Shown here: piece after piece, positions 1-11,256 of the stretch | Numbering within the stretch: the first letter of the stretch is position 1 | Layout: each line of letters begins with the position of its first letter | Position numbers and translations under genes: made by a program | Assembly (NCBI RefSeq): GCF_016026235.1 | Contig: NZ_CP065613.1 | Origin: Escherichia coli | GTDB taxonomy: Bacteria; Pseudomonadota; Gammaproteobacteria; Enterobacterales; Enterobacteriaceae | Strand: one strand, 5' to 3' | Length of the DNA stretch: 64,000 bases | Notes under the pieces: generated by a model | Seen by the model: only the letters and a program-made list of their open reading frames with translations | The model's database searches: none | Told to the model about the DNA's origin: nothing

Positions 1-156
1 AAACGCCCAACCGGGATGCTGACCAACAGTAATATGGAAGAGATGACCAAGTTGCTGGGCGAACGCGTGATGGACCGTATGCGCCTGGGTAACAGTTTGT
101 GGGTGATCTTCAACTGGGATAGCTACCGTAGCCGGGTAACAGGTAAAGAGTATTAA
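1..156 (+). CDS. dnaC: DnaC helicase loader, 3' end only (5' part lies outside the window)
   Basis: Frame 1 translation ends ...MEEMTKLLGERVMDRMRLGNSLWVIFNWDSYRSRVTGKEY with TAA at 154..156, which I recognise as the DnaC C-terminus; order dnaC-yjjA-opgB as in K-12. Confidence 0.8.
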   Translation, partial: KRPTGMLTNSNMEEMTKLLGERVMDRMRLGNSLWVIFNWDSYRSRVTGKEY

Positions 157-201
157 TCCCCGTTTCTGGCGGTATACTGCGACACAATTCCACCTTGAGT
201 A

Positions 202-699
202 ATGATGATGAAAACTGTTAAACATCTTCTGTGCTGTGCCATTGCCGCCAGCGCATTAATTTCCACCGGGGTGCATGCTGCGTCCTGGAAAGATGCGCTC
301 TCCAGCGCCGCCAGCGAACTTGGTAACCAAAACAGCACGACACAGGAAGGCGGTTGGTCGCTCGCGTCATTAACTAACTTGCTTAGCAGCGGGAACCAGG
401 CCTTAAGCGCAGATAACATGAACAACGCCGCAGGCATTCTGCAATACTGCGCGAAGCAAAAGCTGGCGTCGGTAACCGATGCCGAAAACATCAAGAACCA
501 GGTGCTGGAAAAGCTGGGCCTGAACAGTGAAGAGCAAAAAGAAGACACCAACTATCTGGATGGCATTCAGGGTTTGCTGAAAACCAAAGATGGTCAGCAA
601 CTCAATCTGGATAACATCGGAACGACTCCGCTGGCAGAAAAGGTGAAAACCAAAGCCTGCGATCTGGTGTTAAAGCAGGGGCTGAACTTCATTTCCTGA
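202..699 (+). CDS. yjjA: YjjA, small secreted protein of unknown function
   Basis: 165-aa ORF with signal-peptide-like N-terminus (MMMKTVKHLLCCAIAASALISTGVHA); sits between dnaC and opgB; true start may be one of the three consecutive ATGs. Confidence 0.8.
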   Translation: MMMKTVKHLLCCAIAASALISTGVHAASWKDALSSAASELGNQNSTTQEGGWSLASLTNLLSSGNQALSADNMNNAAGILQYCAKQKLASVTDAENIKNQVLEKLGLNSEEQKEDTNYLDGIQGLLKTKDGQQLNLDNIGTTPLAEKVKTKACDLVLKQGLNFIS

Positions 700-952
700 A
701 CCGCGAAACGCCGCGTTTTAGCTGTTACCCGGCTGACGCGGCTCTCTCCTGCCCTTTTCCCTGCTTCTGGACGGTTTTCCCCCTGTTACACGGGAAGCGA
801 CCGCGATCAAAAAAGTCTGTTTATAAACTAATTCCTAACAACATCGCATTTTTTTGACACTAGAATTGCAGCAATATGGCGACGCCATTACATTGTGCTT
901 CTCAAAAAGCTTAAACGTTGGCTAAACGGCCCGGTTTAGTGAGGATCGCCCG

Positions 953-3244
953 TTGTCAGAACTACTCTCTTTCGCCCTTTTTCTCGCCTCTGTGCTAATT
1001 TACGCATGGAAAGCGGGACGTAACACCTGGTGGTTTGCAGCCACATTAACGGTGCTGGGGCTATTTGTCGTTTTAAATATCACCCTGTTTGCCAGCGACT
1101 ATTTTACTGGCGATGGTATTAACGACGCGGTTCTCTATACCTTAACCAACAGCCTGACCGGTGCTGGCGTCAGCAAATACATCCTGCCGGGTATCGGCAT
1201 TGTGCTGGGGCTGACAGCGGTGTTCGGTGCGCTGGGCTGGATCCTGCGCCGTCGTCGCCATCATCCGCACCATTTTGGTTACAGCCTGCTGGCGCTCTTA
1301 CTGGCGCTGGGTTCGGTGGACGCCAGCCCGGCATTTCGTCAGATAACGGAACTGGTGAAATCCCAGTCACGCGATGGCGACCCGGACTTTGCGGCTTATT
1401 ATAAAGAGCCGTCGAAAACTATCCCTGACCCGAAACTCAACCTGGTTTATATCTACGGCGAAAGTCTCGAGCGGACCTATTTTGATAACGAAGCTTTCCC
1501 GGATCTCACGCCTGAACTGGGCGCGTTGAAAAATGAAGGCCTGGATTTCAGCCACACGCAGCAGCTGCCAGGAACGGATTACACGATTGCGGGCATGGTG
1601 GCTTCTCAGTGCGGCATACCGCTGTTTGCCCCCTTTGAAGGCAACGCCTCCGCCTCTGTCTCCAGCTTCTTCCCGCAGAACATCTGTCTGGGCGATATCC
1701 TGAAAAACTCGGGTTATCAGAACTATTTCGTGCAGGGCGCGAATCTGCGTTTTGCCGGTAAAGATGTGTTCCTGAAGTCGCATGGCTTCGACCACTTATA
1801 CGGCTCAGAAGAGCTGAAAAGCGTGGTGGCCGACCCGCACTATCGCAACGACTGGGGATTCTACGACGATACCGTTCTCGATGAAGCGTGGAAAAAGTTT
1901 GAAGAGCTTTCCCGCTCAGGTCAGCGATTCTCACTGTTTACCCTGACAGTCGATACCCATCACCCGGATGGTTTTATCTCGCGTACCTGTAACCGCAAAA
2001 AATATGATTTTGACGGTAAGCCGAACCAGTCATTCAGCGCGGTAAGTTGCAGCCAGGAGAATATCGCGGCGTTTATCAACAAAATCAAAGCGTCACCGTG
2101 GTTTAAAGATACCGTCATCGTCGTCTCTTCTGACCATTTAGCGATGAACAACACGGCGTGGAAATACCTCAATAAGCAGGATCGCAATAACCTGTTTTTT
2201 GTCATCCGTGGCGACAAGCCGCAGCAAGAGACGCTGGCAGTGAAGCGTAACACGATGGATAACGGCGCGACGGTGCTGGACATTCTCGGTGGCGATAACT
2301 ATCTCGGACTTGGTCGTAGCAGTTTATCCGGGCAGTCGATGTCGGAAATCTTCCTCAATATCAAAGAGAAAACATTGGCGTGGAAGCCGGATATCATCCG
2401 CCTGTGGAAATTCCCTAAAGAGATGAAAGAGTTCACCATCGACCAGCAGAAAAACATGATTGCCTTCTCGGGTAGCCATTTCCGTTTGCCGCTGCTGTTG
2501 CGGGTTTCAGACAAACGCGTGGAACCGCTGCCGGAAAGCGAATACTCAGCACCGCTGCGTTTCCAGCTGGCCGATTTCGCTCCACGCGACAATTTCGTCT
2601 GGGTTGACCGTTGCTATAAGATGGCACAACTCTGGGCTCCGGAACTGGCACTTTCCACCGACTGGTGTGTCTCGCAAGGGCAGCTTGGCGGTCAGCAAAT
2701 TGTCCAGCATGTTGACAAAACAACATGGAAGGGCAAAACGGCATTTAAAGATACGGTCATCGACATGGCGCGTTACAAAGGCAATGTCGATACGCTGAAG
2801 ATTGTTGATAACGATATTCGCTACAAAGCCGACAGTTTCATCTTTAACGTCGCCGGTGCGCCAGAAGAGGTGAAACAGTTTAGCGGAATTTCCCGTCCGG
2901 AGTCGTGGGGCCGCTGGTCCAACGCGCAACTGGGCGATGAAGTAAAAATCGAGTACAAGCATCCGCTGCCGAAGAAATTTGACCTGGTGATTACCGCCAA
3001 AGCATACGGCAATAACGCCAGCCGTCCTATTCCGGTACGCGTAGGCAATGAAGAACAAACCCTTGTGCTGGGCAATGAAGTGACCACCACCACACTGCAT
3101 TTCGATAACCCAACCGATGCCGACACACTGGTAATTGTGCCGCCGGAACCTGTCTCAACCAACGAAGGGAATATCCTCGGACACTCGCCGCGTAAGCTCG
3201 GGATCGGCATGGTGGAAATTAAAGTGGTGGAACGTGAAGGATAA
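953..3244 (+). CDS. opgB: Phosphoglycerol transferase I (osmoregulated periplasmic glucan biosynthesis)
   Basis: 763-aa ORF ([28 protein letters not shown]...) recognised as OpgB/MdoB; TTG start at 953; N-terminal membrane segments plus sulfatase-like domain. Confidence 0.9.
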
Positions 3245-5654: not shown

Positions 5655-7016
5655 GTGGAAAAAGAAAATATCACCCTCGATCCGCGTTCTTCATTTACTC
5701 CATCTTCGTCGGCAGATATTCCCGTGCCACCAGATGGATTAGTTCAACGCAGTACCCGAATTAAACGCATTCAAACCACCGCCATGTTGTTATTATTTTT
5801 TGCGGCGGTAATCAATTATCTCGACCGCAGTTCGCTGTCGGTAGCAAATTTAACGATTCGTGAAGAATTGGGATTAAGTGCCACCGAAATCGGCGCTTTG
5901 CTCTCCGTGTTTTCACTCGCTTACGGGATTGCGCAACTTCCTTGCGGCCCACTATTGGATCGTAAAGGCCCACGCCTGATGCTGGGACTGGGGATGTTCT
6001 TCTGGTCACTGTTCCAGGCCATGTCTGGCATGGTGCACAGCTTTACGCAGTTCGTGTTGGTGCGTATCGGTATGGGGATTGGTGAAGCGCCGATGAACCC
6101 ATGTGGCGTAAAAGTCATTAACGACTGGTTCAACATCAAAGAGCGCGGACGCCCGATGGGCTTCTTCAACGCAGCTTCTACCATTGGCGTTGCCGTAAGC
6201 CCACCGATTCTGGCGGCGATGATGCTGGTGATGGGCTGGCGTGGGATGTTTATTACCATTGGTGTGCTGGGGATTTTTCTCGCCATTGGCTGGTATATGC
6301 TCTATCGCAACCGCGAGCACGTAGAACTGACTGCCGTTGAACAAGCTTATCTCAATGCAGGTAGCGTCAATGCCCGCCGAGATCCGCTCAGTTTTGCCGA
6401 ATGGCGCAGCCTGTTCCGTAACCGCACAATGTGGGGAATGATGCTCGGATTCAGTGGCATCAACTACACTGCGTGGCTGTATCTGGCCTGGCTTCCTGGT
6501 TACCTGCAAACAGCCTATAACCTGGATTTAAAAAGCACAGGGTTGATGGCGGCTATCCCTTTCCTGTTTGGGGCTGCCGGGATGCTGGTCAACGGTTACG
6601 TTACTGACTGGCTGGTCAAAGGGGGAATGGCTCCGATTAAAAGCCGTAAGATCTGCATTATTGCCGGGATGTTCTGTTCTGCCGCCTTTACGCTGGTCGT
6701 ACCGCAAGCGACAACATCCATGACGGCGGTTCTGCTGATTGGCATGGCACTGTTCTGTATTCACTTTGCCGGAACATCCTGCTGGGGCTTGATCCACGTC
6801 GCAGTTGCTTCTCGCATGACGGCGTCGGTGGGCAGTATCCAGAACTTTGCCAGCTTCATCTGCGTCTCTTTTGCGCCGATCATTACTGGTTTTATTGTTG
6901 ATACCACCCACTCATTCCGTCTGGCACTAATCATCTGCGGTTGCGTCACCGCAGCGGGAGCACTGGCGTACATCTTCCTGGTTCGTCAGCCGATCAACGA
7001 CCCGCGTAAAGATTAA
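5655..7016 (+). CDS. lgoT: MFS transporter, L-galactonate:H+ symporter
   Basis: 453-aa ORF with 12 predicted TM segments (MFS); GTG start; position between lgoR and tsr. Confidence 0.85.
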   Translation: MEKENITLDPRSSFTPSSSADIPVPPDGLVQRSTRIKRIQTTAMLLLFFAAVINYLDRSSLSVANLTIREELGLSATEIGALLSVFSLAYGIAQLPCGPLLDRKGPRLMLGLGMFFWSLFQAMSGMVHSFTQFVLVRIGMGIGEAPMNPCGVKVINDWFNIKERGRPMGFFNAASTIGVAVSPPILAAMMLVMGWRGMFITIGVLGIFLAIGWYMLYRNREHVELTAVEQAYLNAGSVNARRDPLSFAEWRSLFRNRTMWGMMLGFSGINYTAWLYLAWLPGYLQTAYNLDLKSTGLMAAIPFLFGAAGMLVNGYVTDWLVKGGMAPIKSRKICIIAGMFCSAAFTLVVPQATTSMTAVLLIGMALFCIHFAGTSCWGLIHVAVASRMTASVGSIQNFASFICVSFAPIITGFIVDTTHSFRLALIICGCVTAAGALAYIFLVRQPINDPRKD

Positions 7017-7064: not shown

Positions 7065-8729
7065 TTAAAACGTTTCCCAGTTCTCCCCGCTATCTGCCAC
7101 TGCCATTTTACGCGGCGTAGCTGGCGTCACGTTTTTTACCACAGCCGATGTTTCACGCTGCTGTTGCTGCTGTTGCTGAATCCGGAACACTGCCACAGCT
7201 TCGGTCAGGCGACTGGCCTGCTCTTCCAGCGCGGCGGCGGCAGCGGCAGATTCTTCCACCAGCGCAGCGTTCTGTTGAGTTACCCGGTCCATCTCAGCAA
7301 CCGCTAAGCCAACCTGATCGATACCACGGCTCTGCTCATCAGAAGCAGAAGCAATTTCGCCCATAATGTCCGTCACGCGGGTCACGGCACTGACAATCTC
7401 CGCCATTGTTTCCCCTGCGCTTTCGACCAGCGTAGAGCCAACATCTACTTTCCCCACCGAGTCTTCAATCAGGCTTTTAATTTCACGAGCCGCCTGAGCG
7501 CTGCGCTGGGCCAGATTACGCACTTCACCCGCGACCACCGCAAAACCGCGCCCTTGCTCACCCGCGCGCGCTGCTTCAACCGCCGCGTTCAAAGCCAGAA
7601 TATTGGTCTGGAAGGCAATGCCGTCAATTACGCTGATAATATCGGCGATTTTCTGCGAACTGGTGGAGATATCGCGCATAGTCTGCACCACGTTATCTAC
7701 CACTTTGCCGCCGCGTTGCGCCGTTTCAGAAGCACTTAACGCCAGGTGGCTGGCCTGGCGCGCATTTTCGGCGTTCTGTTTCACCGTTGCGGTCAGTTGC
7801 TCCATGCTGGCTGCCGTCTCTTCCAGCGAAGCGGCCTGTTGCTCGGTGCGCGAAGAGAGATCGTTATTGCCGGTAGCGATTTCGCTGGCACCGCTATAGA
7901 TGGCATTGGCCCCGTTGCGCACATCACCGACGGTACGCATCAGCTCTCCCTGCATATGGCGCAAACTCTCTGCCAGTTGCCCCATCTCATTAGAGCCATC
8001 CACCTCAATCGGTTTCACCAGATCGCCGCCTGCAATATGACGAATGCTGTCAATCAGGCGATTCATTGGCGCTACCAACGAGGCTTTAATACCGAACCAG
8101 ACGGCGAAGATGACTGCCAGTACGACGATCATCACGCCCACCAGAATCCACATCGCCTGGCTGTAGGAGGCATTATTATCGCTGACGGCGATATCATAGA
8201 GCCGATCGTTTTGCTCCATGTAAGCCACATACTGCTTCTCGAAACCGTCCTGATATCCCTGGGTCGGCTGATCAAAGAACTCGTTGATTTTGCCTGCACC
8301 TAACAGTTGGATCAGCTCCGCCAGCGCATTGTGATAAATATCGTAATTACGTTTGATCTCTGCCGCTGCGGCGGTGCTCTGACGCGGGTCACGCGGCAAC
8401 GCTTCGTAATCCGCCCAGTTTTTTTCCGCCTGTTTCAGCGAAATACTGGCACTCTCCATCAGCTCAGCAACGGTTGAACCGCTACCAATATTATTCTGAT
8501 CCATCATGTAGCGGATACCCGCGCGGTTGAGGGTGTTACGCGTCTGCAACAACGCGACCCAGCTGCCATTCAGCGTGGATTGCTGCTGGCGAATGGTTTG
8601 TAAAACAGTGAAATTTTCTTTGTCATTCTTTAAGGCATTAAAGAACAGACCGCCTGATGTCAGTTGTAAAAGGCCAAAAACGGCCAAAACCAGCAGTAAG
8701 CTGGTCACAATTTTGATACGTTTTAACAT
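7065..8729 (-). CDS. tsr: Methyl-accepting chemotaxis protein I (serine chemoreceptor)
   Basis: 554-aa [30 protein letters not shown]... with HAMP and MCP signalling domains and C-terminal NWETF pentapeptide; contains a Q7 tract ([10 protein letters not shown]) encoded by (CTG/TTG)7 at 7158..7178. Confidence 0.9.
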
Positions 8730-8970: not shown

Positions 8971-9105
8971 GTTATTTACCTTACTTTACGCGCGCGTAAC
9001 TCTGGCAACATCACTACAGGATAGCGGTCAATTTACCTCCTCAAACGCAACGCAAACCTAGAACGGCTTCGGCCAACTATTAATCAATACATGCCAGGTT
9101 TTACT

Positions 9106-11256
9106 ATGGATACTAAAAAGATATTCAAGCACATACCCTGGGTGATTCTCGGAATCATCGGTGCATTCTGCCTCGCGGTAGTTGCATTACGTCGGGGGGA
9201 GCACGTCAGCGCCCTGTGGATCGTGGTCGCCTCTGTGTCGGTGTATCTGGTGGCGTATCGCTACTACAGTCTGTACATCGCCCAGAAGGTGATGAAACTC
9301 GACCCCACGCGCGCGACGCCTGCGGTTATTAACAACGACGGTCTGAACTACGTTCCGACCAACCGTTACGTGTTGTTTGGTCACCACTTCGCCGCTATCG
9401 CCGGTGCTGGTCCGCTGGTGGGTCCGGTTCTCGCCGCGCAGATGGGCTACCTGCCTGGCACGCTGTGGCTGCTGGCGGGGGTCGTGCTGGCCGGTGCGGT
9501 TCAGGACTTTATGGTGCTGTTTATCTCCTCTCGCCGTAATGGCGCATCTCTTGGTGAGATGATCAAAGAAGAGATGGGACCAGTACCGGGGACTATCGCG
9601 CTGTTTGGCTGTTTCTTAATCATGATCATCATCCTCGCCGTCCTGGCGCTGATTGTGGTTAAAGCCCTGGCCGAAAGTCCGTGGGGTGTCTTCACCGTTT
9701 GCTCAACCGTACCGATTGCGCTGTTTATGGGTATCTACATGCGCTTTATCCGTCCGGGGCGTGTGGGTGAAGTCTCTGTCATTGGTATCGTGCTGCTGGT
9801 TGCCTCTATCTACTTCGGTGGCGTGATTGCTCACGATCCGTACTGGGGTCCGGCACTGACCTTTAAAGACACCACCATTACCTTCGCGCTGATTGGCTAT
9901 GCGTTTGTTTCCGCACTGCTGCCGGTGTGGCTGATCCTCGCACCGCGCGACTATCTGGCAACCTTCCTGAAAATCGGCGTTATCGTCGGCCTGGCGCTGG
10001 GTATCGTGGTGCTGAACCCGGAACTGAAAATGCCTGCGATGACCCAGTACATTGACGGTACTGGCCCGCTGTGGAAAGGCGCTCTGTTCCCGTTCCTGTT
10101 CATCACCATCGCCTGTGGTGCGGTATCTGGCTTCCACGCGCTGATCTCTTCCGGTACGACGCCGAAACTGCTGGCTAACGAAACCGACGCGCGTTTCATT
10201 GGCTACGGCGCAATGCTGATGGAGTCCTTCGTGGCGATTATGGCGCTGGTTGCTGCGTCCATCATCGAACCGGGTCTTTACTTCGCGATGAATACCCCGC
10301 CTGCGGGCCTTGGCATCACCATGCCTAACCTGCATGAAATGGGTGGCGAGAACGCGCCGATCATCATGGCGCAGCTGAAAGACGTTACCGCACACGCGGC
10401 GGCGACCGTCAGCTCCTGGGGCTTCGTGATTTCGCCAGAGCAGATCCTGCAAACCGCGAAAGACATTGGTGAGCCTTCTGTCCTGAACCGTGCAGGTGGT
10501 GCGCCGACGCTGGCGGTAGGTATCGCTCATGTGTTCCACAAAGTGCTGCCGATGGCTGACATGGGCTTCTGGTATCACTTCGGTATTCTGTTCGAAGCCC
10601 TGTTCATCCTGACCGCGCTGGATGCGGGTACCCGTTCTGGCCGCTTTATGCTGCAAGACCTGCTGGGTAACTTCATCCCGTTCCTGAAAAAAACCGACTC
10701 TCTGGTTGCCGGTATCATCGGTACTGCGGGCTGTGTGGGTCTGTGGGGCTACCTGCTGTATCAGGGCGTGGTCGATCCGCTGGGCGGCGTTAAGAGCCTG
10801 TGGCCGCTGTTCGGTATCTCCAACCAGATGCTGGCAGCCGTAGCGCTGGTACTGGGCACCGTTGTGCTGATTAAGATGAAGCGCACCCAATACATCTGGG
10901 TAACTGTTGTTCCGGCTGTATGGCTGCTTATCTGCACCACTTGGGCGCTGGGTCTGAAACTGTTCAGCACCAACCCGCAGATGGAAGGCTTCTTCTACAT
11001 GGCAAGCCAGTACAAAGAGAAGATTGCTAACGGTACTGACCTGACGGCGCAGCAGATTGCCAACATGAACCACATCGTTGTGAACAACTACACCAACGCG
11101 GGCCTGAGTATTCTGTTCCTGATTGTGGTGTACAGCATCATCTTCTACGGTTTCAAAACCTGGCTTGCGGTGCGTAACAGCGACAAACGTACTGACAAAG
11201 AAACACCGTACGTTCCAATCCCGGAAGGCGGCGTGAAGATCTCTTCGCACCACTAA
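9106..11256 (+). CDS. btsT: Pyruvate/H+ symporter of the CstA family
   Basis: ORF recognised as BtsT/YjiY (MDTKKIFKHIPWVILGIIGAFCLAVVAL...); ORF track starts 5 codons upstream (9091); many TM segments. Confidence 0.9.
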   Translation: MDTKKIFKHIPWVILGIIGAFCLAVVALRRGEHVSALWIVVASVSVYLVAYRYYSLYIAQKVMKLDPTRATPAVINNDGLNYVPTNRYVLFGHHFAAIAGAGPLVGPVLAAQMGYLPGTLWLLAGVVLAGAVQDFMVLFISSRRNGASLGEMIKEEMGPVPGTIALFGCFLIMIIILAVLALIVVKALAESPWGVFTVCSTVPIALFMGIYMRFIRPGRVGEVSVIGIVLLVASIYFGGVIAHDPYWGPALTFKDTTITFALIGYAFVSALLPVWLILAPRDYLATFLKIGVIVGLALGIVVLNPELKMPAMTQYIDGTGPLWKGALFPFLFITIACGAVSGFHALISSGTTPKLLANETDARFIGYGAMLMESFVAIMALVAASIIEPGLYFAMNTPPAGLGITMPNLHEMGGENAPIIMAQLKDVTAHAAATVSSWGFVISPEQILQTAKDIGEPSVLNRAGGAPTLAVGIAHVFHKVLPMADMGFWYHFGILFEALFILTALDAGTRSGRFMLQDLLGNFIPFLKKTDSLVAGIIGTAGCVGLWGYLLYQGVVDPLGGVKSLWPLFGISNQMLAAVALVLGTVVLIKMKRTQYIWVTVVPAVWLLICTTWALGLKLFSTNPQMEGFFYMASQYKEKIANGTDLTAQQIANMNHIVVNNYTNAGLSILFLIVVYSIIFYGFKTWLAVRNSDKRTDKETPYVPIPEGGVKISSHH

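Follow-up and report, generated by a model that had tools for sequence, protein, structure and literature searches.

Introduction

The pentapeptide-tether linkers of the high-abundance chemoreceptors were reportedly studied by Li & Hazelbauer in 2006 and by Bartelli & Hazelbauer in 2011. Through the linker, or tether, CheR and CheB reach a higher local concentration close to the methylation sites, and adaptation is altered when the linker length is changed by engineering (Ortega & Krell, 2020, PMC7390727; TPM model, PMC10561060). Tar tethers of 22, 29, 34 and 46 residues have been compared, and the fitted peak of CheR position shifts by 0.128 ± 0.048 nm per residue (PMC10561060). For Tsr, R516 is given as the tethering point and I517 as the first tether residue (PMC10561060), and the residues after 517 are regarded as non-conserved (PMC4692393). 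The Tsr tether has been taken as 30 residues, with the K-12 tail quoted, and it has been argued that this tether, being shorter than the 34 residues of Tar, fits the closer methylation sites (PMC10561060). According to a recent preprint, linkers of this kind differ greatly in length and a conserved feature of them has never been reported.

Here, we describe the tsr gene of a 64 000-nucleotide stretch of Escherichia coli DNA (the window, by which we mean the whole stretch that was analysed) and a repeat within it whose copy number changes the length of the Tsr tether. The gene, the protein and the 554-residue allele are already known and are annotated in thousands of genomes; the allele is an ordinary length variant. 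A search of the accessible literature found no published description of a glutamine-length polymorphism in Tsr, the nearest account being that which quotes the K-12 tail (PMC10561060). What we add is small: the tight conservation of Tsr tail length among orthologues and the status of K-12 as an outlier.

The gene and its locus

The features of the window that are discussed below are as follows, with residue numbers referring to the window protein.

7065..8729, minus strand: tsr, serine chemoreceptor (methyl-accepting chemotaxis protein I), 554 aa, stop codon included; from the open reading frame and profile matches
7068..7082, minus strand: NWETF pentapeptide, residues 550–554, CheR/CheB docking site; from the sequence, with the docking role taken from PMC7390727 and PMC10561060
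7080..7181, minus strand: C-terminal variable tail (tether), comprising I517, the glutamine tract and the rest of the linker (residues 517–550 region); from the drop in conservation
7158..7178, minus strand: Q7 tract, Tsr residues 518–524; about 2.3–2.4 perfect copies of the 9-bp unit CAGCAACAG

The window protein scores 1222.7 bits on the Tsr equivalog of NCBIfam (NF011615, PRK15041), for which the cut-off is 947, and its residues 1–554 cover the 554-position profile from end to end. The second-ranked family, Tar (PRK15048), scores 752.7 bits and lies under its cut-off of 900. The Pfam domains follow in the order TarH (PF02203, residues 1–176), HAMP (PF00672, 217–263) and MCPsignal (PF00015, 327–484), and the C-terminus reads SGENWETF, which fits the xWxxF pentapeptide. 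In an alignment of 86 sequences W551, E552 and F554 are invariant and N550 and T553 are invariant or nearly so. The gene is matched in 5387 of 5426 complete E. coli genomes, and the annotated tsr of many of these is 100% identical to it. It lies between a reading frame at 5655–7016 with 449 of 453 residues identical to K-12 LgoT and another at 9091–11256 with identity to K-12 BtsT at 425 of the 426 residues in the part compared, so that the order btsT–tsr–lgoT is that of K-12. Serine sensing and signalling to CheA can be predicted for the window protein from its identity of ∼98–99% to K-12 Tsr.

The repeat and its place in the protein

The plus strand at 7158–7178 reads CTGCTGTTGCTGCTGTTGCTG, i.e. 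(CTG/TTG)7. On the minus strand this gives the codons CAG CAA CAG CAG CAA CAG CAG, seven glutamines in frame in the 554-residue reading frame, preceded by GTG TTC CGG ATT and followed by CGT GAA ACA; the poly-glutamine tract proposed from the sequence alone is thus confirmed. The (YTG)7 pattern is found a single time in the window, and 100 dinucleotide-preserving shuffles yield no instance of it. The sequence-only reading had called it a trinucleotide repeat and, while the (YTG)7 string is there, the unit is not 3 bp long. Tandem Repeats Finder (TRF) describes the tract with a period of 9 (2.4 copies, 100% match, score 44) better than with a period of 3 (78% match, score 30), and we therefore treat it as a repeat of a 9-bp unit, CAG-CAA-CAG, and not as a pure trinucleotide repeat. 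The layout is CAGCAACAG CAGCAACAG CAG, in which the 12-mer CAGCAACAGCAG occurs twice as overlapping direct repeats with an offset of 9 nt. With TRF run on the whole 64-kb window, this site is the sole tandem repeat scoring at least 40.

The tract was also said to lie just before NWETF. It forms instead the helix-proximal start of the Tsr tail, at the tether base, and the pentapeptide follows 25 residues downstream. In the window protein, 33 residues separate R516 from NWETF. In the 86-sequence alignment, positions as far as F515 show little or no variation, and R516 and I517 are kept in 93–96% of the sequences. Column conservation, calculated over 81 sequences, is at least 0.83 through residue 517 and 0.2–0.8 from 518 onwards, R540 and K541 excepted, with values of 0.35–0.78 over the tract itself (518–524). 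The glutamines thus fall within the stretch of low conservation that separates the conserved end of the helix from the pentapeptide.

A different physical role would follow if the glutamines prolonged the C-terminal methylation helix and lay outside the disordered chain. A change of three residues either way (∼0.45 nm, 300°) would then shift and rotate the exit of the tether or change the stability of the helix end, and the consequence would be other than a simple change in contour length. The AlphaFold2 monomer (86 sequences, mean pLDDT 69.7, pTM 0.33) does have a single helix from 390 to 528 that runs through the tract, and the motif found at this position in orthologues, IQQEQQRAR[DE], is rich in Gln, Glu and Arg and compatible with a helix. 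However, the tract is modelled as helix at a pLDDT of only ∼47–63 in a monomer of pTM 0.33, which makes the model weak evidence. The mean pLDDT falls from 63 (511–520) to 47 (521–530) and ∼33 beyond, and is below 50 from 528 to 554. Conservation also collapses exactly at residue 518, and the literature takes I517 onwards as unstructured tether (PMC10561060). We consider such an effect at the helix end quite unlikely; the glutamines themselves may be either helical or disordered. The disorder of the linker can be followed directly by EPR; to our knowledge, such evidence is in the literature for Tar only.

Alleles in complete E. coli genomes

The tsr gene of MG1655 (b4355) encodes 551 residues and reads ATT CAG CAA CAG CAG CGT across the tract, that is Q4; the sequence-only reading had correctly expected a shorter run in K-12 (551 against 554 residues). 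We surveyed 5426 complete E. coli genomes, of which 5382 have the region, as judged by a match to a 121-nt query with the tract at its centre. Alleles were counted by megablast with 30-nt allele-specific queries (for Q7, ATT + tract + CGTGAA), and these counts are of near-exact matches because megablast requires an exact word of 28 nt. The Q7 30-mer is found exactly in 3800 of the 5382 genomes, and blastn of the same 30-mer adds 262 genomes with one mismatch and one genome with two. The single-mismatch genomes include synonymous CAA variants, Q5-H-Q tracts and some Q8-H-Q tracts of ten codons. The Q4 30-mer is found exactly in 1208 genomes, including clinical, animal and environmental isolates. 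Q10 is carried by ∼60–70 genomes, LF82 and NRG857C among them. This last count is approximate: ∼68 genomes give the 27/30 partial match that is the signature of Q10, and at least 60 span the full 130 bp of a flanked 130-nt Q10 query, from which only the listed matches with the full span were used, as its identity bands are unusable as counts because Q4 genomes align to it in split form at high identity. With a synthetic Q13 query, Q7 genomes aligned as two overlapping pieces and occupied the top of the matches listed. The ∼43 of 5382 genomes that lie outside the counted classes probably carry Q4, with a SNP within the 30-mer.

By length, roughly 75% of the genomes are thus Q7, about 22–23% Q4 and about 1–2% Q10; these shares are not population frequencies, because the database is biased by laboratory K-12 and B derivatives and by outbreak clones. 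An even-step sample of 60 genomes gave 45 with the span of the window (121 bp, or 118 bp in alignments that end 3 nt early), 14 shorter by 9 bp (112 or 109 bp) and one longer by 9 bp (130 bp). No indel of only 3 or 6 bp was seen in this sample or among the alleles read directly. The proposed polymorphism in repeat length is therefore real, with Q4, Q7 and Q10 coexisting in E. coli. The sequence-only reading had held that an identical Q7 tract in K-12 and in most strains would speak against it; about three quarters of the genomes do have the Q7 length but K-12 differs, and so the claim stands. The window carries the common, majority-length form and K-12 is the outlier.

Direct reading of 18 loci gave proteins of 551 (Q4), 554 (Q7) and 557 (Q10) residues. 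The Q10 codons are CAG CAA CAG CAG CAA CAG CAG CAA CAG CAG, and the three tracts of 12, 21 and 30 nt differ by whole 9-bp steps. Point variants were also read. Two keep the Q7 length, one with a synonymous change of CAG to CAA and one with a Q5-H-Q tract (CAG to CAT), and a third, of ten codons, has a Q8-H-Q tract. All 19 tsr alleles read have an intact reading frame of 551, 554 or 557 residues. A phase-variable contingency locus was considered and rejected: the unit is 9 bp and every allele (19 of 19) keeps the frame.

Repeats are error-prone on some sequencing technologies, although a tract of 21 nt poses no difficulty on any platform. Among the Q4 genomes, K-12 and B derivatives are over-represented, as would be expected if the length difference were a sequencing or assembly artefact or a mutation confined to laboratory K-12. 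Against this, the differences are always exactly 9 bp, in frame and consistent within lineages, Q4 is present in 1208 genomes from clinical, animal and environmental sources as well as on a separate APEC haplotype, and the window allele is identical to that in thousands of independent assemblies. We regard an artefact as extremely improbable and have rejected it.

Recurrence of the length changes

To follow the length alleles on their backgrounds, 19 tsr sequences were compared pairwise with the tract removed, leaving 1644 nt each. BEN2908 (Q4) and BCE049 (Q7) have no differences over these 1644 nt, while the Q4 alleles of K-12 and BEN2908 are separated by 28 differences. ECO21 (Q4) has as its nearest relative Z0117EC0036 (Q10), at ten differences. 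Alleles of Q10 length stand on three backgrounds, and Q4 and Q10 are each found on at least three haplotypes. Strain 94-3024, with the Q10 length, is the nearest in the sample to the window allele (15 differences), and the two have the tail KNVTPATP...SGENWETF in common. The BEN2908 type of Q4, an 'EAS' haplotype with GAA GCA in the flank, is found in 71 genomes, including APEC O1. These comparisons support recurrent changes in length on otherwise identical or unrelated haplotypes.

The tract had been called slippage-prone, and the BEN2908/BCE049 pair and the spread of Q4 and Q10 over at least three haplotypes each bear this out. It is the slipping unit that has to be revised, from one codon to 9 bp, or three glutamines. 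We infer slippage as the mutational mechanism. The same pattern could arise by intragenic recombination in place of repeated slippage, but for BEN2908 this is unlikely: the nearest distinguishing site, a flank SNP, lies just 7 nt 3′ of the tract, and for Q4 to have come from a K-12-type donor, the recombined segment would have to be implausibly short. Repeated slippage is thus the simplest reading. The 12-nt CAGCAACAGCAG, duplicated at an offset of 9 nt, would allow replication slippage to drop or gain whole 9-bp units. Changes of a single codon presumably occur seldom: with CAA codons interrupting the run, no more than two CAG codons stand in a row, whereas a shift by 9 nt pairs 12 nt perfectly. 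Slippage by whole units would yield tracts of 4, 7 or 10 glutamines, for which the tail has 30, 33 or 36 residues, and would always keep the frame. K-12 and the B strains would carry a derived deletion of one unit, the APEC O1/BEN2908 lineage would have lost one unit separately and a few lineages would have duplicated one.

Tail length in other Enterobacteriaceae

To collect orthologues, the N-terminal 260 residues, which are specific to Tsr, were searched against one genome of each species; this gave 80 loci from Citrobacter, Enterobacter, Salmonella, Leclercia, Kluyvera, Buttiauxella and other genera. The near outgroups were Escherichia sp. E1V33 and one divergent species representative labelled E. 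coli; the search listed no locus under the names E. albertii, E. fergusonii or E. marmotae. The motif xVxVF[RH] ends at residue 516 in all 80 orthologues, and the tail from there to the pentapeptide has 33 residues in 47 of the 80 and 32–34 residues in 72 of the 80, with a range of 30–36 and one tail of 48. The commonest total length is 554 residues. The Q7 tail of E. coli (33 residues) has the commonest orthologue length; Q4 gives 30 and Q10 gives 36, and a tail of 30 residues is found among the orthologues in two Trabulsiella only. The narrow spread of tail lengths in the other species could itself reflect that there are no repeats to slip on, instead of selection.

At the position of the tract, the orthologues read IQQEQQRAR[DE] or similar, the nearest Escherichia sequences reading IQQ[TA]QQRQHE. 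None of the 80 Tsr orthologues from other Enterobacteriaceae has a glutamine run longer than three. The pure poly-glutamine tract and its slippage-prone repeat thus appear to be specific to E. coli when set against the 80 other species sampled. Most parsimoniously, the Q7 length would be ancestral in E. coli and the K-12 allele a derived deletion of 9 bp. We take the window allele as the norm and that of K-12 as derived because about 75% of strains have the Q7 length and a tail of 33 residues is typical of the orthologues.

Predicted effect on adaptation

Tails of 30, 33 and 36 residues were put into Equation 7 of PMC10561060 together with the quoted distances of the Tsr sites, a model for Tar being extrapolated to Tsr. 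With the central parameters, the CheR density at the Tsr sites for 33 residues relative to 30 is 0.73–0.94; across the published fits the same ratio runs from 0.39 to 1.1, the equation being based on Tar and its parameters uncertain. Our best guess from this model is that the functional effect would be small, a change of ∼10% in tether length giving a slight shift in where tethered CheR and CheB concentrate on the methylation helices. Any tuning of adaptation kinetics, as suggested by the sequence-only reading, would probably be of small size. On this view the polymorphism would be close to neutral, with at most weak stabilizing selection for ∼33 residues.

The copy number of the unit could alternatively act as a knob, with 30, 33 or 36 residues selected in each lineage or niche for the reach of CheR and CheB and hence for how fast or how precisely the cell adapts to serine. 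Tar tether length does measurably move CheR relative to the methylation sites (0.128 nm per residue over 22–46 residues; PMC10561060), the changes are recurrent and the derived alleles numerous (Q4 in 1208 genomes, 71 of them in the APEC/ExPEC lineage, and Q10 in strains of the LF82/NRG857C type), and the tight conservation of tail length across genera suggests that length matters. Yet the predicted effect of three residues either way is modest, and counts from a database of isolates mirror clonal sampling (laboratory K-12 and B derivatives, outbreak clones) and not fitness. Q4, moreover, has no repeat structure from which it could readily revert, unlike a reversible knob. Adaptive tuning is in our judgement rather unlikely, and a nearly neutral polymorphism is preferred.

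Discussion

The reading that we hold to be probable is that an in-frame 9-bp tandem repeat at the junction of helix and tail gives rise by slippage to the alleles Q4, Q7 and Q10, of which Q7 would be the ancestral majority form, with a small effect on function. A stronger version would have stabilizing selection acting at ∼33 residues, a 9-bp repeat unique to E. coli stepping the tail between 30, 33 and 36 residues, and a shortened tether in K-12 and B strains that makes their adaptation measurably different. We think this unlikely; if it were true, the K-12/B receptor behind essentially all quantitative models of chemotaxis would differ in serine adaptation from that of most wild E. coli.

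There is a practical caveat for work on the receptor. Almost every chemotaxis experiment or model uses the K-12 Tsr, with its tether of 30 residues, whereas a tether of 33 is found in about three quarters of the sequenced E. coli genomes and in most orthologues. With the common allele, the comparison with Tar becomes one of 33 against 34 residues, and the argument from tether geometry (PMC10561060) is weakened as a result. Q4, Q7 and Q10 also form a natural allelic series for models of tether length in Tsr.

Comparison with known systems

The closest relative is K-12 Tsr (b4355, NP_418775.1), with which the window protein shares its gene, locus, domain architecture and NWETF pentapeptide. Outside the tract, 24 of 1644 aligned nucleotides differ, and the tail has a few substitutions (T to N, A to T and E to G). 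The window allele has one extra 9-bp unit, giving Q7 in place of Q4, 554 residues in place of 551 and a tether of 33 residues in place of 30.

Like the in-frame coding VNTRs (minisatellite-like) that slipped-strand mispairing generates in bacteria, the tract has perfect tandem copies, alleles that differ by whole units and homoplasic changes. It differs from them in its very low copy number (1.3–3.3 units) and in having no on/off frame shift. With a single unit, the Q4 allele retains practically no repeat and would be expected to be stable.

As in the pentapeptide-tether linkers described for Tar and Tsr, the window protein has a variable stretch of ∼30–35 residues between the signalling-domain helix and xWxxF. 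The linkers of the literature differ greatly in length, whereas that of Tsr has 33 ± 1 residues in 72 of the 80 orthologues examined here, and the E. coli alleles vary around it in steps of three residues.

Repeats within the tsr coding sequence

The penultimate codon of the glutamine tract carries an identical CAG-to-CAT change (Gln to His) in three of the fetched E. coli tsr loci (L015, L016 and L017). The change is found on 7-codon and 10-codon alleles alike, and the tsr haplotypes that bear it are 13–30 differences apart. This distribution across allele lengths and haplotypes suggests either expansion of the tract on a His-bearing allele or recombination. The gene also contains a second repeat:

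Window 7231–7249, minus strand: period-6 repeat GCGGCA, 3.2 copies, inside tsr, at about residues 495–500 of Tsr

It encodes an AAAAAA run which, in contrast to the glutamine tract, is invariant or nearly so in the alignment of 86 Tsr sequences; no length variation of the repeat was seen.

Presence and genomic setting of tsr in E. coli

A tsr match was absent from 39–44 of the 5,426 complete E. coli genomes searched, and three matches in the same searches were on plasmid-labelled records. In E. coli PCN061 (NZ_CP006636.1) an IS1A insertion divides the match into two pieces, and the gene is annotated there as fragments. The neighbours of tsr vary between E. coli strains (the window and the fetched loci L001–L018), as follows.

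Downstream, lgoT/lgoR: window (lgoT at 5655–7016), K-12, O111 and ST131
Downstream, TRAP-transporter permeases: BEN2908, ST69, BCE049 and Z0117EC0036
Upstream, btsT: window (9091–11256) and K-12
Upstream, hpaR: loci L006–L008 and L014
Upstream, MurR/RpiR regulator: loci L016 and L017

These strain-to-strain differences in the flanking genes thus mean that tsr lies at a junction where gene content varies. In strain CT265 (L016, NZ_CP095795.1, 1966–3327) the annotation gives the lgoT gene downstream of tsr as a pseudogene, interrupted by an internal stop.

Unusual orthologues in other species

An enterobacterial-type tsr was found on a contig titled 'Chryseobacterium sp. 18061' (L081, CACSKA010000015.1); it has 80% identity across the sensing domain and its product ends in ...GDNWETF, and the likely explanation is contamination or mislabelling of the assembly. 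The Trabulsiella orthologues (L072 and L076) end in DSWESF instead of NWETF and have the shortest tails between residue 516 and the C-terminal pentapeptide, at 30 residues in a protein of 551 residues. The sole large departure from the 30–36-residue range is the Tsr of Cedecea sulfonylureivorans (L073), with a tail of 48 residues in a protein of 569 residues.
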